Notes: generated by a model not told the origin, from the letters alone. DNA of 64,000 bases from an uncultured bacterium (GCA_964562805.1 CAZLUT010000002.1:1172-65171); one strand, 5' to 3'. Shown: positions 2,401 through 63,491, counted from the first letter of the stretch. Numbers and translations: made by a program.

Positions 2401-3765
2401 CTAATTTTGATCTAAGACAAAACTGCTGCCTTTTTGACGTTTCGATTTGTTTTTAACGGAACTGATGCGGTTTGTAATTTCACCATAGGAATCAAAGGGT
2501 TTTTCTTCATCGGAAAGAGCCGAAAGGGAAATGGACATGAGAGGAAATTTGGCAAGTTTTTCCCCCTTATCTTCGCCGCCCATTCCTTCAGCCCGTCTTT
2601 CCTTGCCCATAACGTAGCCTTTTGCCCGATCCTCTTTTGAATAGAGCTCTTTCGATTTTTTATCAAATTCGAGAATAAAATGTTCGGAGATTGGTTTGAC
2701 TGTTTTTACTGTCGAGAGAAGAACAAAGTCATCACCACCCTCATGACCCAGAAAATCATCAGCTCCGCCATATTTTTCCACGGCCACCTTAAGAAGTTCC
2801 GCCGTCATCTTAATCGCGATATCACCTGCGCCGATACCATAAGTGTCATTAAAAACTTTGAAATTATCAAGATCCAAATGAACGACAACAAATGTTTTTT
2901 TACTTTGAATTCTTTTTTCGATCTCTTCCCGAATCAGATAATTACCCGGCAATTTTGTTAAGGGGTTAGCATTTTCGGCGATATCTTTCATGCGAGAAAG
3001 TTCTTGAGTCATATCGTTAAAGGTGAGGCTCAATTCTTCTATTTCATCATTGGTCCTAATCCTCACCTGAAGCTTCAGATCGCCCGCAGCAACTTTTTTA
3101 CTTGCCTCATTAAGAGTTAGAATAGGTTTTACAATTTTTCGAGACAAGGCCAAAGTGTGCGTGATCGAAAGAAAAATAATGAGTACCGCCGTGATTATTA
3201 CGGGCACATAAACAGCCTTAAGAGCTTCCTTAAGATTTCCTAAATCATAAGCAGTTTTTAAAACATAAGCGACCTGACGGTCAGCCGTGAGGAGAATCAG
3301 AGTCTCGACGGTGCGGGCCCCCTGGTTGATGAAGGGATATGACCAGGAATCAATCGCATCGAGATCAAAGATATTCTGAATCCTCTCAAAATCGAGGAGA
3401 GAAAGAGGAGGGGGCGCCTGCCCTGCGCTCGAGGCCTCAGCAATAATTTTTCCACTTCGGTCCGCAATATAAATTTCACTTGATGCCTCGGATTCAGTCA
3501 GTTTATTAATGGCCTGCTGGAAATTTTGGATTAATTCTTTTTTGCTCTTTCCTTCATTGATTGCCTGATCAAGCGTGAGCTGCAGATTCTGGTGAATAAT
3601 GACTGACGAAAGTTTGGACCGATATAAATTTTGGTCAGTCGCATTTTGAAGTTGGTTATAAACTTGAATAGCCGTAAAAGACGCGATAATAACCAGCGCA
3701 AAAAGAACCATTAAGTTTATGAGACGAAAATTTAGAGACGAAGTAACGTGATCTTTTTTTCTCAT
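2401..3765 (-). CDS. Membrane-anchored sensor with a periplasmic domain, HAMP and a GGDEF-like domain (GGDDF variant); putative diguanylate cyclase
   Basis: N-terminal TM helix, roughly 150-aa periplasmic region, second TM and a HAMP-like segment. The GGDEF-fold motifs DPLTKLPGNYL, LDLDNFKVFNDTYGIGAGD and HEGGDDFVLL are present. The gene sits 6 bp from the upstream minus-strand gene. Confidence 0.7.
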   Translation of the reverse strand: MRKKDHVTSSLNFRLINLMVLFALVIIASFTAIQVYNQLQNATDQNLYRSKLSSVIIHQNLQLTLDQAINEGKSKKELIQNFQQAINKLTESEASSEIYIADRSGKIIAEASSAGQAPPPLSLLDFERIQNIFDLDAIDSWSYPFINQGARTVETLILLTADRQVAYVLKTAYDLGNLKEALKAVYVPVIITAVLIIFLSITHTLALSRKIVKPILTLNEASKKVAAGDLKLQVRIRTNDEIEELSLTFNDMTQELSRMKDIAENANPLTKLPGNYLIREEIEKRIQSKKTFVVVHLDLDNFKVFNDTYGIGAGDIAIKMTAELLKVAVEKYGGADDFLGHEGGDDFVLLSTVKTVKPISEHFILEFDKKSKELYSKEDRAKGYVMGKERRAEGMGGEDKGEKLAKFPLMSISLSALSDEEKPFDSYGEITNRISSVKNKSKRQKGSSFVLDQN

Positions 3766-3880: not shown

Positions 3881-5830
3881 ATGAAAGTTCGAACTCAAAA
3901 ATTAGCAAGAAACATCTTACAGCCTGTTTTTATTCTCCTTATTTTAGTGGCTTTTTTCGTTTCTTATAATGTTTACTTAGTTGACAATTCGATCGAAACT
4001 TTAAAGTTTTCATTGGAAGAAACCGCGACCGCTCAAAGCCCTATTGCTGCTGAAGGCGTCAGTCTCCTCCTTAGCAATGCTTTGATTTCTGAAACACCTC
4101 AAAAGATAGCTGATTTTAAAACCTTTAATATTTTGGATTTTGCCGCTTCCGTCGCGGGTGAAGCAGATTCCACCAGGCAGCTTAAGAGCGCCGGGTTTGC
4201 GATCGAAGAAGTTTTAGCTGAAAAAGAAAAGAAAAGATTTGTTGTGTTGAGGTGGCTTGATACTGCTAATCGTTATGTGCAGCGATTTTTTTATGCTGTA
4301 AAACAATTTTTTTCGTCCCTTTTCAAAAAGAAACAAACGAAGCCAATCGCCATTGTGAAGCCGGAATTAATGAGGGAAGCCAAGGTTCTTGAGAAAAAAG
4401 GCGACTTTGAGGGTGCTAAAACCGCGTATGAAGAGTTTTTGTTATTAAATGAGAGTGTTGAAGGTATTAGTTTTATGCAGACAAGACTTGCTTTTATTTT
4501 CATGAAATTGGGCAATTATGCTCAGGCAAATGATCTTCTTTCAAAAATTTTAGATTCAGCAGCTAATAAAACAGAAGTTAGAATCGCGGAAAATTTAAAA
4601 GACCAAATTAAAAGAATGGAATCTTTAGCTGGAAAAAGAAATCAGCTCGAAGAAGAAATAAAAACAATAACCAAGGTTGAAGATTTGCAGGAAGCTTATT
4701 TTGAAGTGGGCCGAATGAATACAGAGTTGTATGATTTAAAGAAAGCTCAAGAGGCTTTTAAAAAGACGATTGATCTTGCTCCGGATTCTGAGATTGCCCA
4801 GACAGCGCGTTTTAATCTTGGTTTTGCCTATAAGGTGGCCAATAACATTAAAGCAAGCGAAGAAGTGTTTTTAAAGCTGAGTAAGGGACCGGTTCCGAAC
4901 GTTTTACAGGTAGCCAGCTCGATACAGGTTGCGAGCGTTAAAAAAATAGCAAAGAAGTTCCGAGAAGCCGCTCAAATTTTGGAAACAGTCTCTGCTGAAG
5001 CTGAAGATGTTGTTACCGCGGCGATAGCTCAGTTTGAGGCCGGGTACGTCTATTTGTTCAATTTGAATGATGTGAAAAAAGCCCAGGAGGCTTTTGACCG
5101 TGTTAGCGAGCTTCAAGCCAGGAACCCTAATATGCGACTTCTTGATACCGGTCATGTAGGGGGCGTGGGCCAGTCTGCTTTGAGGGAATATGCGTTTGTT
5201 ATGTTTGAAAAAGGCGACTTCGAAAAAGCAAAAGACGCGTTTGAAACTATTTTGAAAACAGATGAAGATGATTCGTGGTCTTATGCCGGGCTAGGCATGA
5301 TCTATCTTTTAGAAGGAGAGCGGAAAAAAGGGTATGAGATGGCGAACAGGGCCTATACGATCAATCCCGATTACTATACAAGTTCCGCCCTTGCCTATGT
5401 TGAGGAAAAAATAGGCGACCCGGAAAGGGCTATTCAGCTTAATAAAAAATCCATTAAGCTGAATTCGGATTACCTTTATCCTTATTACAATCTCGGTCAT
5501 GTTTATATTGCCGAAAAGAAGTTTAAAGCAGCGGCCGACATACTAAAAAAGGGGAGAAACCTTTCAATTAAGCTGGGGCTCAATTTCCCGCTACTTCCCA
5601 ATAATCTCGGGCTCAGTTACTACCATTTGGGAGAAAACGAAAAAGCCATAGAGATGTTTAACGAAGCTATTAAGTTTGCCCCTACTCTGGCGGACGCGTG
5701 GTATAACCGGGCTCTGACTTATGAAAAAATGGGAGATAAAGATAAATATCTGCGTGACATCAGAGTGGTTTATCGTTTAAACCCAAAATACAAAGATATT
5801 GAGGAAAGAGTTCACAAAAAAGCAGCGTGA
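3881..5830 (+). CDS. TPR-repeat protein with an N-terminal signal-anchor helix
   Basis: AAGGAG ribosome-binding site upstream and an N-terminal hydrophobic helix. Multiple 34-residue TPR-like repeats occur, for example AYFEVGRMNTELYDLKKAQEAFKKTIDLAPD and AWYNRALTYEKMGDKDKYLRDIRVVYRLNPKY. Confidence 0.7.
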   Translation: MKVRTQKLARNILQPVFILLILVAFFVSYNVYLVDNSIETLKFSLEETATAQSPIAAEGVSLLLSNALISETPQKIADFKTFNILDFAASVAGEADSTRQLKSAGFAIEEVLAEKEKKRFVVLRWLDTANRYVQRFFYAVKQFFSSLFKKKQTKPIAIVKPELMREAKVLEKKGDFEGAKTAYEEFLLLNESVEGISFMQTRLAFIFMKLGNYAQANDLLSKILDSAANKTEVRIAENLKDQIKRMESLAGKRNQLEEEIKTITKVEDLQEAYFEVGRMNTELYDLKKAQEAFKKTIDLAPDSEIAQTARFNLGFAYKVANNIKASEEVFLKLSKGPVPNVLQVASSIQVASVKKIAKKFREAAQILETVSAEAEDVVTAAIAQFEAGYVYLFNLNDVKKAQEAFDRVSELQARNPNMRLLDTGHVGGVGQSALREYAFVMFEKGDFEKAKDAFETILKTDEDDSWSYAGLGMIYLLEGERKKGYEMANRAYTINPDYYTSSALAYVEEKIGDPERAIQLNKKSIKLNSDYLYPYYNLGHVYIAEKKFKAAADILKKGRNLSIKLGLNFPLLPNNLGLSYYHLGENEKAIEMFNEAIKFAPTLADAWYNRALTYEKMGDKDKYLRDIRVVYRLNPKYKDIEERVHKKAA

Positions 5831-5907: not shown

Positions 5908-7434
5908 ATGAGACCATTTAAAGATCTAACAGGTATTTTTTGTCTGCTTGTGATTATGTCACTTCTATTTCTTTCTATTCCAAAAAACTCTTTTGCCGGC
6001 GAAGATTTTGATAAATGGGAATTCTCGCGGCTCGCGGCTCTCCATAGCGAGATTGTCCGGGAAGCCGATGCTAAAGCGGCAGAAGCCAAGGAAGCCAAGG
6101 CTAAAGAGGCGAAAGAAAAAGAGGGTCTGCCAAAGGTGTCAGGAGAAGATGCGGCTAAACCAGCGGAGAAGGGCGCCATTCAGGTTAAAGATAGTCAACT
6201 TGACAGGTCCAAGGAGTCTTATTTGGACGAGTTCAAAATAGTAACCAAAAAGAAAAGCTTATTGGAACGGTTGAGCTGGGGCCTTAATTCCTCGATGAAT
6301 TATGATAGCAATGTTTTTAACGAAAAAAAAGGAAGCTCTGATTTGTATTATAAGGCAGGAGCAACCATTGGTATTAACGGTACTGATTTATACAAAGGGT
6401 TAGGATTTCGGCTTAGCTACAACGCGACTTGGAAGCAGTATTTTAAATTTTCCCGCTTAAATCGGCTGAATAATAATATCCTGTTGTCAGTACCAGGAAC
6501 AAATATGCCGCTTAGAATCGGAAAAAAATTGACAGTTACTCTTATACTAGGCATTAACACTAATGCGAGCAATAGCTCCACCAGCCGGAATAATAACTTT
6601 TACACACCTCAATTGAATGTTGAGACAGGGATTCTGGCCGAGTATCTTTTGAGCAAAAAATTTTCAACTACTTTTAAGTGGTCCGGAAGATTTAGACAAA
6701 CTAAGGGCAGAGCCGAGAGCTCTCAGGGGACAGTGGGGATAACTCCCGACGAAAAGGATTATATAATTCAATATCACGATTTTACTCACAGAATACTATA
6801 CCATTTAACTCCTAAAACCTCTGTTTTTGGTGGTTTTGGCTACGGATTTACCAAAAGCAGTGATTCTAGCTCCACTAGCCAAGACACCTTTTATCTCCGG
6901 CCAACGGGCGGCATTATGGGGAGACTGACTCCTAAATCTACTATCAATTTGGCCGCAGGTTGGACAATGCGAAAATTTAAGCTGAACAACAGAACAAGAA
7001 ACAGTTTTTACTTGCAGGCTGCTTATATGGTTGCTCTGACTGAAAAATTATCTGCCACCCTTACGGCGGTTAATGATAGCGATGCTTCAATTCTAAGTAA
7101 TGGCGGATTATTTGGCAGCGCCAGCGTCAAAACGGGGCTACAGTATCGGCTAACTAGAAAGGTGGTATGCTCGCTCAGGAGCGGTATTAGGATGACGCAA
7201 CCTCTTGATGATGATGTGGAAGCAAGCGGTAACGCCACTAATACGGCAGCTGTCCGAGAAGATGCGGGGGACCGTAAAGAATATACTTTTGATGTCGATA
7301 CAAGTATCAGGTATAGTGTATTTAGATGGCTTTCGGTTGGAGCGCATTATAGGTTTGAAGCTCGAAAGGCTGACCGGCCGTCTGGCGGATACGTGTCGCA
7401 TTTGGGGACAATAGATGCTAGAATTAGCGCATGA
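5908..7434 (+). CDS. Putative outer-membrane beta-barrel protein associated with polysaccharide export
   Basis: Signal peptide ending FAGEDF, then a low-complexity AEAKEAKAKEAKEKE linker. The remainder has alternating hydrophobic/polar beta-strand periodicity and sits directly upstream of the wza and wzc homologues. The C-terminus is not aromatic, which is unusual for a barrel. Confidence 0.4.
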   Translation: MRPFKDLTGIFCLLVIMSLLFLSIPKNSFAGEDFDKWEFSRLAALHSEIVREADAKAAEAKEAKAKEAKEKEGLPKVSGEDAAKPAEKGAIQVKDSQLDRSKESYLDEFKIVTKKKSLLERLSWGLNSSMNYDSNVFNEKKGSSDLYYKAGATIGINGTDLYKGLGFRLSYNATWKQYFKFSRLNRLNNNILLSVPGTNMPLRIGKKLTVTLILGINTNASNSSTSRNNNFYTPQLNVETGILAEYLLSKKFSTTFKWSGRFRQTKGRAESSQGTVGITPDEKDYIIQYHDFTHRILYHLTPKTSVFGGFGYGFTKSSDSSSTSQDTFYLRPTGGIMGRLTPKSTINLAAGWTMRKFKLNNRTRNSFYLQAAYMVALTEKLSATLTAVNDSDASILSNGGLFGSASVKTGLQYRLTRKVVCSLRSGIRMTQPLDDDVEASGNATNTAAVREDAGDRKEYTFDVDTSIRYSVFRWLSVGAHYRFEARKADRPSGGYVSHLGTIDARISA

Positions 7435-21133: not shown

Positions 21134-21159
21134 AACCCTCAGTTTTTGGATGGTGTTGA

Positions 21160-21231
21160 ATATTATTGACTATTTTTGATTATTGTTGACATTATTTTAT
21201 TAAACACTTAAAATTTCCTGAATTTTAAGTG
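21160..21231 (+). promoter_or_regulatory. Sigma-70-like promoter with repeated TATTWTTGAY boxes and a perfect 11-bp inverted repeat overlapping the -10
   Basis: ATTATTGAC, CTATTTTTGAT and TTGTTGACA boxes. -35 TTGACA at 21185-21190, 17-bp spacer, -10 TAAAAT at 21208-21213. Palindrome CACTTAAAATT-TCCTG-AATTTTAAGTG at 21205-21231. Confidence 0.45.
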
Positions 21232-21350
21232 TTCAGCTGAGACTTTGGTTGTAGAAGAGATTTAAAATTACGATAAAGAATTTTGTTTTATACTATAATC
21301 AAAAGAGTTTTATTTGAGACAAGACTAATATAAAGTTGGGAGAATTTAAG

Positions 21351-22376
21351 ATGGCTGAGTCGAAGATTAATCAGGAAGAAACATCAGGCGGGCGAGTACT
21401 CAACTCGTCAATTCAAGCAGATCCTGATGTCCCTTTCCGGAAAAAATTTGGCCCCAAGTGGGATGAGTATCGACGTAATTGGGCAGCAGCCTCTCGAATG
21501 GAATACCGTCCTGATTTTCCTCTCTTTGTTCGCTTCGAGACTAAATTTCGCTGCAATCTTCACTGTAAAATGTGTGCGCATGGCCACCCGGATCTTGAGA
21601 AGGGGTATTCGTATGACGGTGAGCTTGATTTTGATACTTATTGCCGCTTGATTGATGAGTGTGCTGAGCATGGTTGTCCTTCAATTGGAATGAATCATGC
21701 CAACGAACCGCTTCTAGACAAAGATTTAATCGAGAGAATTAATTATGCGACTAAGCGTGGAATTATGGATATCCATATGAATACCAATGCAATGTTATTA
21801 ACTGCTGAAATGTCAAAAAAGCTTCTTGATACGGGGTTAACCAGACTTTGTTTTAGTGTGGATGCGCTAACTCCCGAGACTTTTAAAAAGATCCGGGTAG
21901 ATGCTGATTATGATCTCGTTATGTCGAATATTGACACTTTTTTAAATTTACGGGCCGAGCGAAGGCAGGATCTTCCGGTGACTCGGGTTAGCCTTGTTTT
22001 ACAGGAAGATAACAAGCACGAAGTAGATGCTTTTCGCGAGCATTGGGTCAAAAAAGTTGAGTATGTAGCGATTCAAAGGTATGTTCCCATAAGCCCATTT
22101 GATCAAGAAGAGGACGATATGCGCGCTCATGCAACGTCTTTTTCACCTAAAGAAGGCGCTCAAAAGTGTTCCTATGCCTGGGAATCTGTGTTTATCCATG
22201 GCGATGGAACTGTTTTGCCGTGTGCGGCACACAGAGCTCGAAAGATTGCCGTGGGCAATATACACAAAAACACAATTCATGAAATTTGGAATTCGCCCTC
22301 GATGGAAGAGTTGCGGATGAAGCATAAAACGGGGAATTTAGAAGGCTTAAAGCTTTGCCCGACATGCATTCAATAA
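21351..22376 (+). CDS. Radical SAM enzyme with a C-terminal SPASM/twitch-like Cys cluster
   Basis: CNLHCKMC (Cx3Cx2C). C-terminal cysteines CSYAWE...GTVLPCAAH...LKLCPTC. ATG at 21351 has a GGGAGA ribosome-binding site; the track starts at a TTG at 21336. Confidence 0.7.
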   Translation: MAESKINQEETSGGRVLNSSIQADPDVPFRKKFGPKWDEYRRNWAAASRMEYRPDFPLFVRFETKFRCNLHCKMCAHGHPDLEKGYSYDGELDFDTYCRLIDECAEHGCPSIGMNHANEPLLDKDLIERINYATKRGIMDIHMNTNAMLLTAEMSKKLLDTGLTRLCFSVDALTPETFKKIRVDADYDLVMSNIDTFLNLRAERRQDLPVTRVSLVLQEDNKHEVDAFREHWVKKVEYVAIQRYVPISPFDQEEDDMRAHATSFSPKEGAQKCSYAWESVFIHGDGTVLPCAAHRARKIAVGNIHKNTIHEIWNSPSMEELRMKHKTGNLEGLKLCPTCIQ

Positions 22377-53656: not shown

Positions 53657-54982
53657 ATGAGTAAGAAAGTTTATATAAGGACCTTTGGTTGTCAGATGAA
53701 TACTTATGATTCTCAGGTGGCACTTGGGTTTTTAAAAGATAGCGGATATGATCTTATCAGTGATGAAAAGCAAGCGGATATTATTTTAATTAATACCTGC
53801 AGTGTTCGTGAGCATGCTGAAGATAGGGTGTATGGCATGCTTCATTCTCTCAAAAGAAATAAGCAGAAAAATAAGAATCTAATTATTGGTGTCTTGGGCT
53901 GCATGGTAGAAGAGCACCGGGAGAAACTTTTTCAAAAATTTCCTTATGTCGATCTTTTGTGCGGCACACGGAATTTAAAAGATCTCCCCAAGTTAATCGA
54001 AGATGTTAAGAAGAAAAAAGAGCAGATCGCGCGTATTAATCAAGAAGGGATAGGAGTTGAATATCTTGAGACAGCGCATCGAGAGTCAAAAATCCATGCA
54101 TTTTTGCCTATCATGACAGGCTGCAACAAAGCATGCACCTATTGCATCGTTCCCATTACACGCGGTCCTGAAGTTTCAGTAGCTAGTTCTGAGATATTAA
54201 AAGAGGCAAATCGTTTAGCGGGTGAAGACTTTAAACACATTACTCTTTTGGGGCAAAATGTTAATTCATACGGCAAAGACAGCATGGAAGAAATGAGTTT
54301 TGCAGAGCTTCTCGGGGAGTTAAATAAAATTAGGGGAATCGAGAAGATTAGTTTTACGACAAGTCATCCGGAAGATGCCACGCCAACACTTTTTGAAGCG
54401 ATCCGAAATCTAGAAAAAGTATCCCGAAGATTTCACTTACCCCTTCAATCCGGATCAGACAAGATTCTTAAAAGAATGAAACGGCTTCACACTATCCGGG
54501 ACTACAAGGAAAAAATTGACTTGCTGAGACGGGAAGTTCCCGATATTAGCATTACGACTGATATTATTTTGGGTTTTCCGGGGGAGAGTGAAGAAGAATA
54601 TCTGGATACCAAAAAAGCATTGGAACAAATTCGTTTTGATGGTGCTTTTATTTTTAAATACTCTGAAAGGCCCGGCACCCCGGCTGCCCGCCTTAAGGAC
54701 GACGTACCTCTAGAAATTAAAAAGAAACGGAACCAAGAGCTGTTGGATCTTCAAAAAGGAATTACAAAAGAAAATAATGCTAGGCGGGTAGGTTGCCGAT
54801 ATAAAGTATTGGTTGAAGAGCCGAGCATGAAAAATCCGGAAGAATTTTTAGGGAGAAGTGTTCAGGATCAGAAAGTGGTTTTTTCAGCCTCGGATTCTAA
54901 AAAGGTTAAAGCAGGGGAAATGGTAATGGCCAAACTAATATCGGTAAGCGGCGATACCTTTAGAGGAGAAATTTGTGAATAG
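53657..54982 (+). CDS. miaB: tRNA methylthiotransferase (MiaB-like radical SAM MTTase with TRAM domain)
   Basis: VYIRTFGCQMNTYDS, radical SAM CNKACTYC, size 441 aa. Confidence 0.75.
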   Translation: MSKKVYIRTFGCQMNTYDSQVALGFLKDSGYDLISDEKQADIILINTCSVREHAEDRVYGMLHSLKRNKQKNKNLIIGVLGCMVEEHREKLFQKFPYVDLLCGTRNLKDLPKLIEDVKKKKEQIARINQEGIGVEYLETAHRESKIHAFLPIMTGCNKACTYCIVPITRGPEVSVASSEILKEANRLAGEDFKHITLLGQNVNSYGKDSMEEMSFAELLGELNKIRGIEKISFTTSHPEDATPTLFEAIRNLEKVSRRFHLPLQSGSDKILKRMKRLHTIRDYKEKIDLLRREVPDISITTDIILGFPGESEEEYLDTKKALEQIRFDGAFIFKYSERPGTPAARLKDDVPLEIKKKRNQELLDLQKGITKENNARRVGCRYKVLVEEPSMKNPEEFLGRSVQDQKVVFSASDSKKVKAGEMVMAKLISVSGDTFRGEICE

Positions 54983-55763
54983 GTTTATATTCTTCTGTGT
55001 TTTGTGGTTTGTGGTTTGTAGTTTTATGACTTCTTGCGCTACAGCACCCAAAAGTACGGTTAACATGGGGGATCCTTCAACTTATGTAAAAGTAAATTTT
55101 CTAAAGGGTAATTATGATGAAGTAATTCGATACAGTCGGACACTCGGTATACTTAATGAAAGAGGTGATCGCTTAAGCATTCTTTATTATGTCGGCGTCA
55201 GTCAATTAGCGAAAAAAGATTTTGAAAATGCCCGCAAAAGCTTCAAACTTTTAAAAGAAAGAGATAAATCGAAAAAGTATCAGGATATATCTGATATTCG
55301 AATCGCTGATTCTTATTTTGTTGACGGAAAATATCATCAGGCCCTGAGGCTTTACGGGCCCCTTATTAGCCGATATCCCACAAGTGATTACTTACCCTAT
55401 ATTTATTACCGTTTGGTGCTGGCGAGTCAAAAGACCGGCAATTTTAAACAGGCAAAGCAATATTATGATGCGCTGCAGAAAAAATATCCTGAAAGTCTGG
55501 AGTCAGTGCGCCTTGAAATGGCCTTGGATCCGATGGATTTAGATGGTTACAGTGTTCAGGTCGGCTCGTTTTCGGATCGCGGGAAGGCCGGGCAAGTTCG
55601 CGTGAAACTTCTCAATCGTGGATACCTTGCTTCGATTCGCGAATCAAAACGGGAGGATGTTACTTATTATCGCGTTCGCATATCTTGCCAAACCCGTTCC
55701 CAAGCAGAGCGAGTGGCTGCCAAGCTTCGATTGGAAGGTTATTCGACGAAGGTCTACCCATGA
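54975..55763 (+). CDS. Lipoprotein with TPR-like (YbgF-like) region and a C-terminal SPOR domain
   Basis: Signal peptide with lipobox-like FMTSC. C-terminal YSVQVGSFSDRGKAGQVRVKLLNRGYLASI...YYRVRIS is SPOR-like. Confidence 0.6.
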   Translation: MNRFIFFCVLWFVVCSFMTSCATAPKSTVNMGDPSTYVKVNFLKGNYDEVIRYSRTLGILNERGDRLSILYYVGVSQLAKKDFENARKSFKLLKERDKSKKYQDISDIRIADSYFVDGKYHQALRLYGPLISRYPTSDYLPYIYYRLVLASQKTGNFKQAKQYYDALQKKYPESLESVRLEMALDPMDLDGYSVQVGSFSDRGKAGQVRVKLLNRGYLASIRESKREDVTYYRVRISCQTRSQAERVAAKLRLEGYSTKVYP

Positions 55764-55764
55764 G

Positions 55765-55781
55765 GCGGCCCAAGGCCGCCA
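55765..55781 (+). terminator. GC hairpin GGCGGCC-CAA-GGCCGCC immediately after a stop codon; no U-tract
   Basis: Perfect 7-bp GC stem 2 nt after the TGA of the TPR-SPOR gene. Confidence 0.3.
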
Positions 55782-55815
55782 GTGGTCAGTGATTGGTGAT
55801 TAGTGGTTAGTAAGG
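55781..55815 (-). repeat. Tandem heptamer array (5 copies, AGTGRTY on plus, which is RAYCACT on minus, the same family as CACTAAC)
   Basis: AGTGGTC AGTGATT GGTGATT AGTGGTT AGTAAGG read directly. Overlaps the predicted nnr start. Confidence 0.5.
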
Positions 55816-56447
55816 CAATCACTCCGGAGAGAATGCGAAAGCTTGATGAGATCAGTATTAAAAAATATGGGATTCCTAGTGTTGTCCTGATGGAGAATGC
55901 GGGTAGGGGCGCAGCACTTCGAATCCTTGGTCTTATTAAGAAAAATCAAAAAATACTAATTATTTGCGGCAGTGGAAATAATGGGGGCGATGGTTTTGTG
56001 GTGGCGAGGCACTTGGCTAATCAAGGAATTAAAGTTGGAGTCATTTTTTTAGGGAACGTTAAAAAACTTACTCCTGACGCTAAAATTAATTACGGAATTA
56101 TTAAGAGAATGAAAATTTCAATTAATACTGCTAAACAACTAAAACCTCTTCTTTTAAAATCCAACTTAATAATTGATGGAATTTTTGGAACCGGTTTGAC
56201 CCGTCCTATTGAAGGTGAATTGGCTGAAGTGGTTGAATCCATAAATCATTCAAAAAAACCGGTTGTGTCACTCGATATTCCCTCAGGTCTTAACGGAAAG
56301 ACGGGGAAAGTGATGGGAAGTGCTATTAAGGCAAAAGAAACCGTGACTTTTGGTGCTCCCAAAACCGGCTTTTACAAAAACGACGGCCCTCGGCATGCCG
56401 GGAAAATTACAATAGTCGATATCTCCATTCCCCAAGCCTTATTCTAG
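55803..56447 (+). CDS. nnrE: NAD(P)H-hydrate epimerase (YjeF N-terminal domain)
   Basis: ICGSGNNGGDGFVVARHL and LDIPSGL. Size 214 aa. GTG start. Confidence 0.8.
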   Translation: MVSKAITPERMRKLDEISIKKYGIPSVVLMENAGRGAALRILGLIKKNQKILIICGSGNNGGDGFVVARHLANQGIKVGVIFLGNVKKLTPDAKINYGIIKRMKISINTAKQLKPLLLKSNLIIDGIFGTGLTRPIEGELAEVVESINHSKKPVVSLDIPSGLNGKTGKVMGSAIKAKETVTFGAPKTGFYKNDGPRHAGKITIVDISIPQALF

Positions 56448-56503
56448 TCTTCTGTCTGATCCTCGTAGATTGAAGACACAGAAGATTCAGGGTAAGAAAG
56501 GAG

Positions 56504-56615
56504 AAGAAATACCACTCAAAACAATTAGCGCACTTTGCGGAGGCGAGGAGATCCTCTGCCATTTTAATGGCAGATAGCTCCGAGCGAAGCGGCGCGTTTT
56601 GAGTGGTATTTCTTC
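56504..56615 (+). other. Structured element with a 20-bp perfect stem (GAAGAAATACCACTCAAAAC / GTTTTGAGTGGTATTTCTTC) and a 72-nt loop with internal hairpins; candidate ncRNA or regulatory element
   Basis: Perfect 20-nt inverted repeat. Inner palindrome CTGCCATTTTAATGGCAG and CGGAG...CTCCG pairing. Located in the 223-bp gap upstream of lipA. Confidence 0.4.
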
Positions 56616-56670
56616 CCCTTCCTCAACTCGATGACACTTCAATACTCTCTCTTGACCTTTTTTATCTCTT

Positions 56671-57564
56671 TTGTTACAAGGAGCTATGAATCAGACCCAA
56701 CCCCGTAAACCAGATTGGTTAAAGCGTCCTTTACCTCAGGGCTCAAGTGAGCCGACCCAGCGTTTAATCCGTAAACTGGGATTAAACACGGTCTGTAAAG
56801 AAGCTGGATGCCCCAATAAACAGGAGTGTTTTTCTAAGCAAACGGCTACTTTTTTAATCGGTGGTAAATTTTGCACAAGAAACTGCAAGTTTTGCTCGGT
56901 GGAATCCGGAAGACCTGAAGAGATTGACCCCGAAGAACCGGAAAAAATAGCAAAAGCCGCAAAAGAAATGAATTTAAAGTATGTTGTTATAACCTCCGTC
57001 ACTCGAGATGATTTAACGGATGGTTTGGCAAATCATTTCCGCGCAACCATTCAAGCAATTCGCTGTCTAACGCCTGAAGTTTCTATCGAAGTGTTAACTC
57101 CGGATTTTAAAGGCCGGAGGGAATTGATCGAAATAGTTTTGAAGGAAATGCCCCAGGTATTTAATCACAACATTGAAACGGTACGGAGACTTACCCCGCT
57201 TATTCGTTCAGAGAGCGATTATAAAAGAAGCCTTTCGGTTTTGAAACTTGCAGCCTCTTATAATCCAAAGATTAAAATTAAAAGCGGCCTAATGGTTGGT
57301 TTGGGGGAAAGATGCGAAGAAATCGTAGAATCATTAGTGGATCTGAAAGAGGCTGGAGTCCAAATGGTTACAATTGGCCAATATTTAAGGCCCCATACCG
57401 GATGTTTGCCTGTTAAAGAGTATCTAGAGCCCCAAAAATTCGCTTTTTATACTAAAAAAGCGAAGGAAATAGGTTTTTTTGCGGTTCGATCTGGACCTTT
57501 TGTTCGAAGTTCCTATAATGCTAAAGAATCCTTCAGCGAAATGTCAACTTCGCCCGGTATTTAG
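56671..57564 (+). CDS. lipA: Lipoyl synthase
   Basis: CKEAGCPNKQEC and radical SAM CTRNCKFC. Motifs SGLMVGLGE and RSSY. An alternative ATG start lies at 56686. Confidence 0.9.
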   Translation: MLQGAMNQTQPRKPDWLKRPLPQGSSEPTQRLIRKLGLNTVCKEAGCPNKQECFSKQTATFLIGGKFCTRNCKFCSVESGRPEEIDPEEPEKIAKAAKEMNLKYVVITSVTRDDLTDGLANHFRATIQAIRCLTPEVSIEVLTPDFKGRRELIEIVLKEMPQVFNHNIETVRRLTPLIRSESDYKRSLSVLKLAASYNPKIKIKSGLMVGLGERCEEIVESLVDLKEAGVQMVTIGQYLRPHTGCLPVKEYLEPQKFAFYTKKAKEIGFFAVRSGPFVRSSYNAKESFSEMSTSPGI

Positions 57565-57647
57565 CCGTTAATTAGTAAACCTGATTAGTATGGGTATATT
57601 AAATATGGATTTTGAGTTAATTTTAATTAAAAAGGAATGTAAAGTCA

Positions 57648-58910
57648 GTGGTTAAGAAAAAGATAAAAAAAAGAAAAAAAGTTAAAACACATCCGCCGCT
57701 TGTTTTGGATCCAAAGCACAGCTTTATCCAGGAAGCTAACCGGATGAAAAGACTCCCGCCCTACCTTTTCACATTAGTAGATGATATTAAAAGGGAAGTG
57801 GTCGCGACTGGCGTTGATGTAGTTGATTTTTCGATGGGGAGCCCTGATCTGGAGCCGCCCCAGCATATTATCGATGCTCTTAAAAATTCGCTTCATAACC
57901 CGGGTGTTCATCGTTACTCAAAATGGGATCACGATGTTGAAAAGAGACTCCGCTCAGCAATTAGTCATTGGTATAAGAGAAAATTTAATGTTTCGCTTAA
58001 TCCGGATACTGAAGTATTGCCTTTACTTGGATCCAAAGAAGGGATTGCTCACCTTTGTTTGGCTTTTATGAATAATGATGACCTGGCACTCGTTCCAAGC
58101 CCGGCTTACCCTGTGCATTTCAATGGAATCATCATGGCAGGGGGTATTCTTTACAATATTCCGACCAATGAAGAAAATAATTGGCTCCCTGATTTGTTTA
58201 GCCTACCCAAAGAAACAGTTCGCCTGAGCAAGCTCCTTTTTTTAAGCTATCCCCACAACCCAACAACGGCTATTTGCGATGAAGAATTTTTTGAAAAAGT
58301 AGTTCATTGGGCAAAGGGTAAAGATATTATCGTAGTCCATGATTTTGCTTATTCTGATTTTGTTTATGGTAAGAAAAAAGTTCCCAGCATGCTTAACATA
58401 AAAGGCGCCAGGGACTTTACGATTGAGATTCATTCTTTGTCCAAGTCTTACAGTATGGCTGGCTGGCGCCTTGGTTTTGCGGTGGGAAACCAGCTTATTT
58501 TAGATAAACTTAAAAAAACCAAAAGCTATTGCGATTTTGGTATTTTTCAGGGAGTTCAGGAAGCTGCTATTGCAGCTCTCAACGGACCGCAAGGCTATGT
58601 TAAAAAAATAGTTGCCATTTATAAAAAGCGCCTTGAGTTTTTTACCAAAGGGCTTCGGGAAATTGGCTGGGATGTTGCGATGCCGAAATCAACTTTCTAT
58701 ATCTGGGCTAAGATACCTTTGAGATATGCCGCACTCACTTCTTTGGAGTTTTGCGAGTTAATGCTCCGCGAGGCGGGAGTAGCCGTCTCACCAGGTACGG
58801 GCTTCGGTGATTTTGGAGAAGGTTACGTGCGTTTTGCTTTAGTTGAGCCCGAAAACAGAATGAAGATAGCTCTGAAAAGAATTAAAGCTCTCTTAGAGAG
58901 AAAGGACTAA
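57648..58910 (+). CDS. Fold-type I (class I/II) aminotransferase, possibly LL-diaminopimelate aminotransferase-like
   Basis: LPPYLF N-terminal motif, GSKEGIAHL, SLSKSYSMAGWRLGF with the PLP lysine, and NPTT. The GTG start gives a Lys-rich extension. ATG at 57744 is an alternative start. Confidence 0.7.
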   Translation: MVKKKIKKRKKVKTHPPLVLDPKHSFIQEANRMKRLPPYLFTLVDDIKREVVATGVDVVDFSMGSPDLEPPQHIIDALKNSLHNPGVHRYSKWDHDVEKRLRSAISHWYKRKFNVSLNPDTEVLPLLGSKEGIAHLCLAFMNNDDLALVPSPAYPVHFNGIIMAGGILYNIPTNEENNWLPDLFSLPKETVRLSKLLFLSYPHNPTTAICDEEFFEKVVHWAKGKDIIVVHDFAYSDFVYGKKKVPSMLNIKGARDFTIEIHSLSKSYSMAGWRLGFAVGNQLILDKLKKTKSYCDFGIFQGVQEAAIAALNGPQGYVKKIVAIYKKRLEFFTKGLREIGWDVAMPKSTFYIWAKIPLRYAALTSLEFCELMLREAGVAVSPGTGFGDFGEGYVRFALVEPENRMKIALKRIKALLERKD

Positions 58911-58931
58911 ACCTTTTAAAAAAGGAGTTTT

Positions 58932-60050
58932 ATGAGGGTCTTTTTTAAGCAAAAGATTTTCTTTTTAACTTTTCTTTTGGTTTTTCTTGGTCTTACAGTA
59001 AGTGCTTTTGCATATCGTGCGCCCGGTCTTCAAACGCATCGCGTTTCACTTAAAGGCGCCGAATATTTTCCGCTCAAAAAAGTAGCAGACCACCATAATT
59101 TTTCGATTGAATGGGACGGATTAACCCAAAAAATCGTTCTCTATAAAGACGGTAAATATTTAAGTTTTATCGTTGGTGAGCCATTTTATCTTATTGGTAA
59201 TCATGTAAACGCTTTGAAATATCCGGCCCAAGTTCGGAGGGGTAAAATATTAATACCCAAACAGCTTGCTTATAACTCGTGGTGGAAAAGACAAGCCTCT
59301 CCGCGCATGTTCCAAGCCACTCTTTCGAAACTTCCATTTCCGAAAGGTCAATTCACTATTTCTAAAATTGTTTTAGATCCCGGCCATGGCGGCAAGGATA
59401 AGGGTGCAAGGGCTTACGGGTTAATGGAAAAAAATATTAATTTACAGATTGCAAAGCGTATCCGTGATAAATTAAGAGCCAACGGCATTCAAGTGCTGAT
59501 GACTCGAGAAACGGATCGTTACGTTTCTTTGCAGGGAAGGTCGAAAATCGCGAATCGGTCCAACGCCGATCTTTTTATAAGTGTTCACGCTAACGCTTCC
59601 GCTAATGCCCGCAGCGCTTCCGGATTTGAAGTTTTTTACCTCTCAGAAGCTTTGAATGATAATGCCCGTGCGGTTCAAATTTTGGAGAATTCATCCATTC
59701 AGTATGATGAAAATGTAATTTTTCCCAATAAAAACACGAAAGACCCGACAGTCTGGGATTTGGTTTTGACTGAAAACCGAAAGGAATCCGCCGAGCTTGC
59801 CAAGATCATAAATAACAAAGTGTGGCGATCCCGCTTAACAAAAGTCAGAGGTGTCAAGACCGCCCGGTTTCATGTTTTGAAATGGACCGATAAACCATCT
59901 ATTTTGATCGAGACAGGATTTTTGACAAATTATAGGGAAGCCAGAAATTTAAAAAATTCCAAATATCAGGATCGCTTGGCAATTCAGATTACAAAGGGAA
60001 TTCTTGAATATAAAGAGCTCTACGAACAGACGAACGGCTTTACGAGATAG
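58932..60050 (+). CDS. N-acetylmuramoyl-L-alanine amidase (Amidase_3, AmiC-like) with an N-terminal targeting domain
   Basis: Signal peptide. IVLDPGHGGKDKGA, DLFISVHANA and GFLTN. Confidence 0.8.
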   Translation: MRVFFKQKIFFLTFLLVFLGLTVSAFAYRAPGLQTHRVSLKGAEYFPLKKVADHHNFSIEWDGLTQKIVLYKDGKYLSFIVGEPFYLIGNHVNALKYPAQVRRGKILIPKQLAYNSWWKRQASPRMFQATLSKLPFPKGQFTISKIVLDPGHGGKDKGARAYGLMEKNINLQIAKRIRDKLRANGIQVLMTRETDRYVSLQGRSKIANRSNADLFISVHANASANARSASGFEVFYLSEALNDNARAVQILENSSIQYDENVIFPNKNTKDPTVWDLVLTENRKESAELAKIINNKVWRSRLTKVRGVKTARFHVLKWTDKPSILIETGFLTNYREARNLKNSKYQDRLAIQITKGILEYKELYEQTNGFTR

Positions 60051-60067
60051 TGAATAGCAAAGCCGAC

Positions 60068-60130
60068 TACTAACCACTAACGACTAACGACCAACGACTA
60101 GTCACTAACGACCAAATACTAAAGACTAAA
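60068..60130 (+). repeat. Nine tandem heptamer repeats, consensus NACTAAC
   Basis: TACTAAC CACTAAC GACTAAC GACCAAC GACTAGT CACTAAC GACCAAA TACTAAA GACTAAA, abutting the murI start. Confidence 0.6.
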
Positions 60131-60135
60131 AATTG

Positions 60136-60951
60136 ATGAGCAAAAAAAGTAAGATCAATTTTTCCATCGGAGTATTTGACTCTGGACTTGGCGGACTTAC
60201 CGTTGCCCGGGCTATTCGACGTTTACTCCCTGCGGAAAATATTTGTTATTTCGGAGATATCGCACGGCTCCCTTACGGTATTAAATCCAAGAAGCAAATT
60301 ATTGAATTCTCCAAGCAAAATACCAATTTTCTTCTCGGAAAAAAAATCAAAGCACTTGTTATCGCGTGTAATTCATCGGCAAGCACCAGCCTGGATGTTC
60401 TCAAAAGAAAGTATTCTCTCCCCATTATTGACGTGATTACACCGGCGGCTCATTTAGCCGCAAGCGTTACTACGAATCACCGGATTGGCATTATTGGAAC
60501 CGCGGCAACTATTGAAAGCAAGAGCTATCAAAAGGAAATTCATCGTCTTAATAGACGAATCCAAATTAAAGAGATGGCATGTCCTCTTTTTGTACCCCTG
60601 GTAGAGGCCGGCTGGCTTGATAACTCGATCACACATCTAATTATAGAAAAATATATAAAGTCACTCTTACGTTCCAAAATTGATACTTTAATTTTAGGCT
60701 GCACCCACTACCCCTTACTGCACCGGGCTATTAAAAGGGTTGCGGGCCCTGGTGTTGCCTTGATTGATTCCGCCCCCTCAACCACAGAAAGGTTAAGAGA
60801 TGTTTTAAAACGAAGAGGTCTTTTAAAAGAGGGTGTGGGATCGCATGGAAGTCTAAAGATTTATGTCTCAGACCTGCCCCGAAATTTTCTGAAAATAGGC
60901 GAAAGATTTCTCGGGCAAAAAATTACTCATATTCGTACCGTTCCTATTTAA
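60136..60951 (+). CDS. murI: Glutamate racemase
   Basis: IGVFDSGLGGLTVARAI, CNSAS and GCTHYPLL. Confidence 0.9.
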   Translation: MSKKSKINFSIGVFDSGLGGLTVARAIRRLLPAENICYFGDIARLPYGIKSKKQIIEFSKQNTNFLLGKKIKALVIACNSSASTSLDVLKRKYSLPIIDVITPAAHLAASVTTNHRIGIIGTAATIESKSYQKEIHRLNRRIQIKEMACPLFVPLVEAGWLDNSITHLIIEKYIKSLLRSKIDTLILGCTHYPLLHRAIKRVAGPGVALIDSAPSTTERLRDVLKRRGLLKEGVGSHGSLKIYVSDLPRNFLKIGERFLGQKITHIRTVPI

Positions 60952-60985
60952 CCACTAACCACTATCCACTAGTCACTAACCACTG
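60951..60985 (+). repeat. Five tandem heptamer repeats ACCACTA (same family, shifted phase), followed by TTATAAT
   Basis: ACCACTA ACCACTA TCCACTA GTCACTA ACCACTG. A TTATAAT -10-like hexamer lies 7 nt upstream of the queD ATG. Confidence 0.55.
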
Positions 60986-60999
60986 TTATAATCCTCCCC

Positions 61000-61371
61000 A
61001 TGTACGAAGTTAGCGTTAAATCAGAAGTAAAATCAGGGCATCAATTGCGTTCCTATGACGGAAAGTGTGAGCGTCTTCACGGACATAACTGGCAAGTAGA
61101 GGTTACGGCAAGTGGCGATACTCTTGATAAATTGGGTGTCATTATTGATTTTCATATTTTAAAAGAAAAATTAGATAGGGTCTTGGCCCCTTTTGATCAT
61201 ACTCGAATGAATTCTGTGCCTCCTTTTGATCAAATAAATCCTTCGGCTGAAAATTTAGCCAATTTTGTATGTGAAAAATTAATGAAAGAGCCCGAAATTT
61301 CAAAAGTTTGCCGGATTAAAAAAGTGGTTGTTGTTGAGGACGAGGGTTTTACAGCTTCTTTTACGCCATAA
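61000..61371 (+). CDS. queD: 6-carboxy-5,6,7,8-tetrahydropterin synthase
   Basis: CERLHGHNWQVEV (CxxxHGH). Size 123 aa. Confidence 0.85.
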   Translation: MYEVSVKSEVKSGHQLRSYDGKCERLHGHNWQVEVTASGDTLDKLGVIIDFHILKEKLDRVLAPFDHTRMNSVPPFDQINPSAENLANFVCEKLMKEPEISKVCRIKKVVVVEDEGFTASFTP

Positions 61372-61378
61372 ATTATCT

Positions 61379-62053
61379 ATGTCAAAAACAGTTATTCTTC
61401 TTTCAGGCGGCTTAGACTCAGCCACCACACTTGCCATTGCAAACGATAACAAACAAAAGCTTTTTGCATTATCATTTGATTACGGCCAGAAGCATTCAAG
61501 AGAGCTTCGAGCCGCTAAAAAAATAGCGGAATATTACGGTGCTAAACATATCACTTTAAAAATTCAATTCCCCTGGAAAGGAAGCGCTCTTCTAGATCCA
61601 AACGTAAAGATTCCCGAAAAGCGCTCCCTTAAAAAAATGAATCAAAAAATCCCCGCAACTTATGTGCCGGCACGCAATACGCTTTTTCTTTCATATGCCT
61701 TGTCGTGGGCGGAGACGATAAGGGCCGAATCAATTTATATAGGGGCTAATGCCTTGGATTACAGCGGCTATCCTGATTGCAGGCCCGGTTTTTTAAAAGC
61801 TATTGAACGGGCATTTACTTTGGGTTCGAAGAAAGGTGTAGAAGGTGCTAAAATCAAAATCAAGGCACCTCTTCTCAAAAAGACAAAAGCCGGAATCGTT
61901 CGGTTAGGGAAAAAATTAAAAGTTCCTTATGGGTTGACCTGGTCATGTTATAAAGGGGGGAAGAGGCCTTGCGGGAAATGCGACAGTTGTCTTTTGAGGG
62001 CAAAAGGTTTTAAAAAAGCACGGGTGAAGGATCCGTTGGTGATTGATGAATAA
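61379..62053 (+). CDS. queC: 7-cyano-7-deazaguanine synthase
   Basis: PP-loop VILLSGGLDS. Zinc cysteines CYKGGKRPCGKCDSC. Internal ATG start chosen. Confidence 0.9.
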   Translation: MSKTVILLSGGLDSATTLAIANDNKQKLFALSFDYGQKHSRELRAAKKIAEYYGAKHITLKIQFPWKGSALLDPNVKIPEKRSLKKMNQKIPATYVPARNTLFLSYALSWAETIRAESIYIGANALDYSGYPDCRPGFLKAIERAFTLGSKKGVEGAKIKIKAPLLKKTKAGIVRLGKKLKVPYGLTWSCYKGGKRPCGKCDSCLLRAKGFKKARVKDPLVIDE

Positions 62054-62747
62054 CATGAAAGCAGAAATAACAGAAATATTTTCGTCACTCCAGGGCGAGG
62101 GGCCTTATGCGGGTGAAAAACAGATTTTTGTTCGATTTAAAAGGTGTAACCTTCGCTGCGCCTATTGCGATGAGCACCGGGAGGAGTTTGAAGAGCTCGC
62201 CCCCACCGAGGTTTTAGAGAGAATTGAAGCTCTCAATATTATGCACGGCCCGCACCGATTCATTAGCTGGACGGGAGGAGAGCCTACCCTTTATTTCCGA
62301 TTTTTAAGAGAAGTCTTGCCGGCCCTCAAACAGAAAGGTTATCAAAATTATTTAGAAACGAACGGGACTTTGCCCGAAGTTTTAGAAGAGCTTCTTCCTA
62401 ATGCTGACGTTGTTGCTATGGATATAAAGCTTCCTAGTATGACTAAGGATAATTATTACTGGGCTGAACATGAAATGTTTTTAAAAAAATCCAGAGCTTC
62501 GAATCTTTTTGCGAAAATTGTCCTGTCAAAAAAAGTGAATTTAAAGGAATTTGATCAAGCTGTTGAAATTCTGAGTAAAACAAGACCTGAAACCTTGCTT
62601 GTGCTGCAACCTTTAAGTTCGGGAGAGGCTGAAATGGTTTCGAGCGAAACCATTAATTTTCTTGAAAAACTCAAAGAACGCGCTTTATTGAAACTATCTC
62701 GTGTTCAGGTAATCAAACGTTTGCACAAAATTTTGGAAATAAAATAG
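62046..62747 (+). CDS. queE: 7-carboxy-7-deazaguanine synthase (radical SAM)
   Basis: EIFSSLQGEGPYAGEKQIFVRFKRCNLRCAYCD. Confidence 0.85.
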   Translation: MNNMKAEITEIFSSLQGEGPYAGEKQIFVRFKRCNLRCAYCDEHREEFEELAPTEVLERIEALNIMHGPHRFISWTGGEPTLYFRFLREVLPALKQKGYQNYLETNGTLPEVLEELLPNADVVAMDIKLPSMTKDNYYWAEHEMFLKKSRASNLFAKIVLSKKVNLKEFDQAVEILSKTRPETLLVLQPLSSGEAEMVSSETINFLEKLKERALLKLSRVQVIKRLHKILEIK

Positions 62748-62765
62748 GCTGAAAAAGGAGTGGTT

Positions 62766-63491
62766 ATGAAACGTGTCGATGGAAGAAAAGCTAACGAAAT
62801 GAGAAAAATTAAGATTCAAAAAGATTATATTAAATATGCTTCAGGATCTTGCCTGATTGAATTCGGTAACACCAAAGTAGTTTGTACCGCTTCTATTGAA
62901 GACGGAGTACCGCGCTTTTTGAGAGGAAAAAATTCAGGATGGATTACAAGCGAATATGGAATGCTTCCGGCCTCATGCGGCAACGGAAGGATTTCTCGGG
63001 AGTCTTCCAAAGGTAAGGTGGGGGGGCGAACTCATGAAATCCAGCGCCTCATCGGAAGATCTTTAAGAACCGTTGTTGATCTTGAAGCGTTGGGTGAGAA
63101 AACAATATGGATTGACGCGGATGTTATTCAAGGTGACGGAGGCACTCGGACAGCTGCTATCACGGGAAGCTTTATTGCTTTAGTAGATGCTCTGAAAAAG
63201 TTAAAAGATAAGGAAGGGCGAGATGAACTTCCGATATTGGATACGGTTGCCGCAATTAGTGTCGGCATTGTAGAGGGTAAACCTGTTTTAGATTTATGTT
63301 ATGAAGAAGACTCTACAGCACATGTTGATATGAATTTTGTGATGACGGGACGCGGAAAAATTATTGAAGCTCAAGGGACAGCGGAGCGCGAACCTTTTAC
63401 AAAGGCAGAGATGGATCGTCTTTATCAGCTCGCATCGAAGGGTGTTAAAGAATTAACTCAGCTTCAGAAAAAACATTTAAAGCTTACGTAA
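62766..63491 (+). CDS. rph: Ribonuclease PH
   Basis: [20 protein letters not shown] and [14 protein letters not shown] at 62766 with an AAGGAG ribosome-binding site. Confidence 0.9.

Follow-up and report, generated by a model that had tools for sequence, protein, structure and literature searches.

The 64,000-nt stretch of DNA from an uncultured bacterium analysed here (GCA_964562805.1, CAZLUT010000002.1:1172-65171; below, the window) carries three arrays of tandem heptanucleotide repeats, named A, B and C, which share the unit ACTAACN and lie at gene boundaries around the murI, queD and nnr genes. The host is a member of Candidatus Omnitrophota, judging by the best named relatives of its MurI protein, which are Omnitrophica/Omnitrophota metagenome-assembled genomes (MAGs) at 55-58% identity. 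The window was read directly and scanned with Tandem Repeats Finder and with our own period scan (periods 5-9). The arrays fill very short spacers within a co-directional gene row, and all three boundary arrays named in the initial annotation were found where it had placed them (Table 1).

Array A in the register ACTAxxx consists of the units ACTAACC, ACTAACG, ACTAACG, ACCAACG, ACTAGTC, ACTAACG, ACCAAAT, ACTAAAG and ACTAAAA. It starts 18 nt past the amidase stop codon (TAG, 60048-50) and ends 4 nt short of the murI ATG, in agreement with the nine copies said to abut that start. The 5' units are nearest to the consensus and the array degenerates toward murI; the most consensus-like units are distant from the downstream gene. 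Array B reads (TT)TAACC, ACTAACC, ACTATCC, ACTAGTC, ACTAACC and ACTGTTA. The murI stop codon (TAA, 60949-51) lies inside its first unit, and its last unit overlaps TGTTATAAT in the -10 region of queD, much as the five copies running from murI to the queD -10 had been described. The plus strand of array C reads AGTGGTC, AGTGATT, GGTGATT, AGTGGTT and AGTAAGG; its reverse complement contains ACTAACC, ACTAATC, ACCAATC and ACTGACC, and the mRNA would carry GUUAGU-type units.

Tandem Repeats Finder assigns the arrays period 7 with 8.7, 5.1 and 3.4 copies and 74-82% matches. Long periodic stretches are seen at period 7 only, periods 5, 6, 8 and 9 giving none at the strict threshold, and at least 16 of 21 period-7 matches are reached at 50 window positions, against 0.16 in shuffled sequences. 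The longest perfectly periodic stretch in the arrays measures 13-16 nt. The three-unit pattern ACTAACNACTAACNACTAAC, with up to three mismatches allowed, has 10 matches, all of them in arrays A, B and C, where 0.04 are expected and none of 100 shuffles reaches that number; the recurrence of one heptamer family at three sites is indeed not expected by chance. Neither the period-7 scan nor the three-unit pattern detects such an array in positions 1-54900, and within the 64 kb the heptamer is not a low-complexity motif distributed uniformly through the sequence. Arrays A and B are 83% identical over 35 nt (60078-60112 of A), with the rare unit ACTAGTC at the matching relative position, and by hand alignment the reverse complement of array C is about as similar to B.

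Table 1. Repeat arrays and neighbouring features, in window coordinates
Feature	Position	Strand	Description
Array A	60069-60131	+	nine ACTAACN-type units in the amidase-murI spacer
Array B	60947-60988	+	5-6 ACTAACC-type units, occupying the murI-queD spacer
Array C	55781-55815	-	five units of the ACTAACN family, inverted, between the upstream stop/hairpin and nnr
Fourth related period-7 array	54996-55024	.	TGTGGTT x4, stop-free variant, from the period scans
GC hairpin GGCGGCC-CAA-GGCCGCC	55764-55780	+	right behind the TGA (55761-63) of a BamD/SPOR-like gene
nnr / YjeF_N	55803-56447	+	start uncertain: GTG 55803 (JGI call) or ATG 55833
Single forward unit AATCACT	55816-55822	+	base-pairs with array C in the fold prediction
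Amidase gene (N-acetylmuramoyl-L-alanine amidase)	58932-60050	+	PF01520; upstream of array A
murI (glutamate racemase)	60136-60951	+	PF01177; arrays A and B on either side, in direct orientation
TGTTATAAT, extended -10 element	60984-60992	+	ends 7 nt before the queD ATG; found by eye
queD (PTPS family)	61000-61371	+	PF01242

By the gene calls, all three arrays A, B and C are intergenic. Both strands of the ACTAACN unit contain a stop triplet (TAA and TAG, respectively), and stop codons occur in all six frames of array A and in five frames each of arrays B and C. Since three or more consensus units close all six frames, the arrays are restricted to non-coding spacers. The exception to the intergenic placement is the fourth, related array, which is probably coding, as the hydrophobic core of a lipoprotein signal peptide, VNRFIFFCVLWFVVCSFMTSC. 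The reverse complement of its TGTGGTT unit, AACCACA, is one base off the AACCACT of array B, and the change removes the stop. The GTG at 54975 upstream of it has a strong GAGGAG site (-9.1 kcal/mol), and the JGI start is the ATG at 55026, directly past the array.

As RNA, arrays A and B are poor in G (6 of 66 and 2 of 42 bases), and the predicted folding energies of the leaders containing them, -4.3 and -4.8 kcal/mol, do not surpass those of shuffles. A search of Rfam 15 over positions 54500-61500 at permissive thresholds (E up to 1) matches the arrays to no riboswitch or other RNA family; the preQ1 riboswitch, a candidate for the region upstream of queD, has no match there under the same limit. 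Promoter and terminator scans likewise give no match at the arrays, and neither the promoter scan nor the sequence itself offers a recognisable promoter of murI's own beside array A. A TTG at 60133 is in frame with murI, the product on record being that from the ATG at 60136.

TGTTATAAT, a textbook extended -10, is separated from the queD ATG by CCTCCCC in the window, and the identical nonamer is found 10 nt upstream of the queD ATG in a relative (locus L006, ~2920-2945). In the window, TGTTATAAT is so placed that transcription would begin on the ATG or right beside it. queD is likely to be transcribed from a promoter of its own, as an mRNA that is leaderless or almost so. The initial annotation had remarked that the repeats leave murI with no Shine-Dalgarno sequence. 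This is correct, and extends to queD, and it carries no special meaning, as such a site is recognisable in just 30 of the 58 window genes when the best candidate start is chosen for each. At nnr, the five inverted units behind a GC hairpin were described correctly, and their overlap with the gene start holds only if GTG 55803 is the start; the alternative ATG 55833 is plausible, being preceded by GGAG. Array C begins immediately 3' of the hairpin, whose stem is 7 bp long. Taken together as an intrinsic terminator, the two provide a stem and a tail, AGUGGUCA, that is not U-rich, and the terminator scan does not list them. The AATCACT unit and array C compose a miniature GTTAGT...ACTAAC inverted pair with a z-score of the predicted fold of just -1.2.

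An identical MurI is encoded on five public contigs (L001-L005), which are consensus assemblies from different samples. Over 13.9 kb, the longest (104 kb; JGI 3300009008, Ga0115649_1000603) shows a single mismatch to the window. Identity is 99.93-100% for the other four, with no indel, and array length does not vary among the five, which at such identity is a weak test of length variation; array A is identical in L001-L003 and L005. One end of the Logan contig L004 (SRR8062320_518903) falls inside array A, at window position 60088, where no 31-mer is repeated; low coverage, assembly trouble or read-level heterogeneity could account for it.

The nearest relatives found, L007 and L006 (72% and 69% MurI identity), keep the gene order amidase-murI-queD-queC-queE-rph. 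Their spacers were compared with those of the window by eye, the MAFFT alignment being uninformative. The amidase-murI spacer of L007 ends in ...CTAACTGCTAATAACTGAAAATTTGTG, similar to ...ACTAAAGACTAAAAATTGATG at the degenerate 3' end of array A, and TAACTG-like words occur in the spacer of this relative only. L006 has three period-7 arrays of other units (910-944, 3310-3343 and 4747-4789): a GCTGCGG-type array in the N-terminal region of the amidase, a CCAGCGA-type array that supplies QueD with a C-terminal tail of 13 residues, and four copies of GGTATAT that stop ~5 nt before the rph start. The order lipA - (gcvH-like) - aminotransferase - murI - queC - queE - rph - rdgB, corresponding to window positions 56671-63491, is kept in the distant Omnitrophota loci L248, L249 and L250, where the genes of the row overlap or nearly abut. 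In the window lineage, the amidase gene and queD are inserted on either side of murI, exactly at arrays A and B.

Arrays of the same unit are found in other genomes. Exact ACTAACNACTAACNACTAAC scans of metagenome and of species-representative genome collections returned at least 120 stretches in each; these are samples and not censuses. A hand count of record titles among the 120 genome matches listed gives ~50 Cyanobacteria (mostly filamentous), 23 Bacteroidota, 13 Acidobacteriota and 1 Omnitrophota, with fewer matches from Chloroflexota, Planctomycetota, Firmicutes, Victivallales, Patescibacteria and Gammaproteobacteria. Among the matches listed, the threefold ACTAACN is present in at least 12 phyla. 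For the survey of gene context, loci (L008-L247) were picked by a perfect three-unit seed and gene edges were taken from crude calls of open reading frames (ORFs). In the first catalogue, of 256 arrays, not one was situated within a long ORF.

The position and strand of the surveyed arrays follow the type of gene edge. Among the 258 arrays scored for gene context, those within 30 nt after a stop codon read GUUAGU in the mRNA in 99 cases against ACUAAC in 20, and those within 30 nt before a start codon read ACUAAC in 51 cases against GUUAGU in 20. The 3' end of the ACTAAC strand lies at a median of 12 nt from the gene edge, the other end at ~95 nt from the next gene (p 3e-19), and the rule extends to arrays with no partner, which number 137 of the 258. 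Inverted pairs are arranged as GTTAGT-spacer-ACTAAC in 58 instances and in the opposite way in 4; their spacers (3-70 nt) are mutually unrelated, and the arms often differ at the seventh position. Gene-proximal units are more degenerate (p 2e-7). The window arrays fit every one of these points: ACUAAC stands 4 nt (array A, murI) and 11-14 nt (array B, queD) before starts, and GUUAGU of array C stands 18 nt after a stop, with the qualification that in such tiny spacers the arrays also touch the other neighbouring gene.

The one Omnitrophota match among those listed is a second MAG of the phylum, L232 (JBDRBG010000116), which has GTCGTTA arrays right behind the stops of ftsW, murC and ddl. Within its ftsW-murG-murC-murB-ddl-ftsQ cluster, arrays at 1927-1999, 4945-4965, 6090-6130 and 7217-7251 begin at or just past the stop codon, with GTCGTTA/GTCGTTC units after ftsW, murC and ddl and less regular GTGAATA/GTTGGTG-type units after murB. 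In addition, a longer repeated element (...cgtcccat...tttgcgaggaggaacgaagtgacgacgcggcaatctcg...) is present several times in these spacers.

Two further spacers of the window have repeats of other kinds. A very stable long hairpin is predicted for the 223-nt nnr-lipA spacer (56448-56670); its fold, built on a 20-nt inverted repeat, GAAGAAATACCACTCAAAAC / GTTTTGAGTGGTATTTCTTC, reaches -82.4 kcal/mol (z -6.0, equalled by 0 of 200 shuffles). The hairpin has no match in Rfam, and its arm is absent from all other fetched loci; a GCGAGGAG word within it recalls the repeated spacer element of L232. Positions 21156-21202, in a 200-nt spacer upstream of a gene starting near 21336-21351, hold a degenerate 10-nt tandem repeat, TTGAATATTA TTGACTATTT TTGATTATTG TTGACATTAT, whose iterated TTGAC words may represent a stack of -35 boxes or a set of binding sites.

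Heptamer repeats as a class have been described since 1990 and were surveyed in 2007 and 2015. The STRR sequences of cyanobacteria, reportedly characterised by Mazel et al. in 1990, are said to be tandemly amplified heptanucleotides in non-coding DNA; their units are CCCCAGT, TTGGTCA and CAACAGT and their hosts heterocystous cyanobacteria. Tandem non-coding heptamers are common to STRR and the window, whereas the ACTAACN unit and the Omnitrophota host fall outside the STRR definition. The REP and BIME elements of enterobacteria are dispersed short spacer elements, often found just after stops and often in inverted pairs. REP elements are imperfect palindromes with a spread linked to RAYT transposases, in contrast to the tandem 7-mers of the window. 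Our literature search found no paper linking Omnitrophota with heptamer repeats.

Closer parallels come from three studies. The heptamers GGGAATC of Xanthomonas and GGGGA(C/T)T of Nostoc PCC 7120 obey the same rule of distance and strand, and their function is unassigned (Rehm et al. 2015, PMC4692102). Like the window arrays they are tandem 7-nt units, mostly intergenic, with inverted pairs occurring, and they are dispersed through their genomes; on the coding strand, the G-containing reading is found at 0-50 bp downstream of stop codons and frequently extends over the stop itself, and its complement immediately precedes starts, which is the arrangement of the ACTAAC arrays. They differ in sequence and in host phylum, and their number, ~190 per genome, was counted genome-wide, whereas the window arrays are known from ~71 kb; unlike the G-rich heptamers, ACTAAC arrays cannot form G-quadruplexes. 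The TAACTGA repeats of marine Beggiatoaceae, of Cyanobacteria and of Bacteroidetes abut the start codons of unrelated genes that have no ribosome-binding site, and binding of a post-transcriptional factor (S1, a cold-shock protein or a CsrA-like protein) was proposed for them (MacGregor 2015, PMC4679880). They resemble the window arrays in lying a few nt upstream of starts, often of housekeeping genes, and in being predicted as unstructured RNA; they comprise 2-6 units, sometimes more, show a patchy phyletic distribution, and have 7-nt-step indels between close strains (PMC4679880). Their unit is not ACTAACN, their reverse strand is stop-free, and inverted sets are rare, with one in BOGUAY (PMC4679880). 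The recO gene of Nostoc PCC 7120 is preceded by eight contiguous GAC(C/T)AAT units running into the start codon, a repeat seen at 13 or more other genes, and deletion of the heptamers had modest regulatory effects, altering those of NtcA and LexA (Pradhan et al., bioRxiv 10.1101/2022.06.06.494920). These GACTAAT and GACCAAT units are nearly those of array A (GACTAAC, GACCAAC and GACCAAA), the host in which the deletions were made being a cyanobacterium.

We favour, on balance, the reading that arrays A, B and C are intergenic heptanucleotide simple-sequence repeats of the class that includes the STRR-like, TAACTGA and GGGAATC repeats, and that they are no switch and have at most a role at the RNA level. 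Of the marks of the class, tandem rows of at least three units, non-coding spacers and start/stop polarity are present in the window, and we hold with high confidence the view of what the arrays are; what they do can be proposed from sequence with low confidence only. The class itself is known, and what is new here is the combination of the ACTAACN unit with an Omnitrophota host. The arrays would have originated by slipped-strand expansion from a short seed, together with copying between nearby spacers, growth being tolerated only in untranslated stretches. Expansion from a seed is suggested by the likeness of the 3'-most units of array A to the short spacer of L007. The irregular five-unit pattern that A and B share, and that C resembles, is a hint of block-wise copying, five units at a time, from spacer to spacer and not of independent growth in each, in a sample too small for certainty. 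Any function would act in the transcript: arrays A and B would provide a G-poor, A/C-rich and little-structured leader or spacer beside starts that have no Shine-Dalgarno sequence, B would also be the DNA upstream of the conserved extended -10 of a leaderless queD, and C would sit in a 3' untranslated stretch behind the hairpin.

Several observations weigh against this reading. All those found lie within 6 kb (54.9-61.0 kb) of the ~71 kb read of this genome. They are absent from the same spacers in L006 and L007, where L007 has spacers of 36 nt (amidase-murI) and 6 nt and the murI of L006 overlaps the amidase gene; the arrays are thus evolutionarily young and lineage-specific. Three more distant Omnitrophota loci around murI (62 kb) contain zero period-7 arrays, and the arrays are therefore not a trait of the whole phylum. 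About half of the window genes have neither a Shine-Dalgarno sequence nor an array, so the arrays are not needed for such starts, and the idea that they replace a Shine-Dalgarno sequence is weakened accordingly. The survey, for its part, is shaped by its perfect seed and its crude gene edges.

The main rival takes the arrays as a pure mutational by-product, slippage heptamers that would pile up in untranslated spacers and have no function, their polarity arising from a directional mechanism of growth or overwriting or from constraints at gene edges. We regard this as possible, if rather doubtful. The absences in the closest relatives and in the other Omnitrophota loci speak for it, as do the arrays of other units in L006, one of which has become part of the queD coding tail, the degeneracy of the units, and the lack of a common theme among the flanking housekeeping genes; polymerase slippage has also been suggested as a source of 7-mers by Mrazek, as cited in PMC4679880. 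It is harder to reconcile with the orientation rule at starts and stops, which is strong in unpaired arrays too and requires either selection or a polar mechanism, and with the finding that conservation is higher in repeat-bearing spacers than in controls (Rehm et al. 2015, PMC4692102).

There is also a bolder reading, which we consider unlikely: the ACTAAC arrays, found in more than 10 phyla, would be a pan-bacterial class of polar untranslated-region elements with a real, orientation-dependent role. In one version, a conserved RNA-binding protein would recognise single-stranded ACUAAC at 5' leaders, the complement marking 3' ends; in another, the arrays would be laid down by a directional, gene-anchored mechanism of growth. 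In the window, their spread would then be due to the copying of a five-unit block (~35 nt) from one spacer to the next and not to independent slippage.

Recurrence of the motif at three boundaries within 5 kb could also be explained by an iterated operator, in which a DNA-binding regulator would coat the duplex arrays and co-regulate nnr, murI and queD; the altered NtcA and LexA effects at the Nostoc recO heptamers lend this some support (bioRxiv 10.1101/2022.06.06.494920). We think it improbable, since a 7-bp period is out of helical phase and puts successive sites on different faces of the duplex, no regulator is known to be common to the more than 10 phyla that have the unit, and orientation follows the type of gene edge and not promoter geometry. 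The helical argument favours a single-strand (RNA) reading, if any.

A further alternative, long-range pairing of the GU-rich array C with the AC-rich array A or B in one transcript, would make a processing site or a loop coupling the expression of the block from nnr to murI. The predicted duplexes are stable (C:B -43.8 and C:A -34.5 kcal/mol, against ~-17 for shuffles), and GTTAGT-spacer-ACTAAC inverted pairs are common across phyla. Complementarity is automatic for inverted copies of one repeat, however, the arrays are 4.3-5.2 kb apart with co-transcription only presumed, and more than half of the surveyed arrays are unpaired; we find the pairing improbable.

The least probable of the alternatives we weighed is the contingency locus put forward in the initial annotation, in which a gain or loss of copies, in steps of 7, would change the spacing at the promoter or ribosome site and thereby switch expression of murI, queD or nnr. 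The arrays do stand at promoter or start-codon positions, and the edge of contig L004 within array A could reflect variation as well as assembly trouble. Known contingency loci, such as the phase-variable AGAT repeats between the promoter and start codon of Moraxella uspA2, as cited in PMC4679880, have long perfect tracts, strain-variable copy number and surface or virulence genes, whereas the window arrays are degenerate and invariant and neighbour essential or housekeeping genes. Their short perfectly periodic stretches are poor substrates for slippage. The five assemblies, consensus sequences at least 99.93% alike and hence a weak test, show no length difference. The queD promoter is of the extended -10 type, which should not need precise -35 spacing, and array B lies upstream of it; array A occupies an operon-internal spacer with no promoter match, the tract being neither in an ORF nor between a -35 and a -10. 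The proposal is accordingly disfavoured.

Two other models were rejected. Rho-utilisation sites fit the geometry of the polarity, in which C-rich, G-poor RNA would point into genes from either side. Cyanobacteria are not known to have Rho, and because they account for the largest share of the named-genome matches listed, the model fails as a general explanation; the unit is also poor in pyrimidine-C dimers. Telomere-like addition to 3' ends at breaks would account for inverted pairs of the GTTAGT-spacer-ACTAAC kind, but the gene-relative rule is followed by unpaired arrays as well.

Taken alone, the window arrays add little, namely one more heptamer unit and one more phylum, Omnitrophota, to a class of repeats already described. 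They are a data point for the question of why 7-nt repeats, and no others, collect strand-specifically at gene edges in very distant bacteria. The presence of ACTAACN in at least 12 phyla, a polarity like that of unrelated units, and the excess of one pair arrangement (58 against 4) make a common mechanism more plausible and give it the form of a testable rule. For genome annotation, such arrays mark true gene edges and can mislead start calls, as with the choice between 54975 and 55026.

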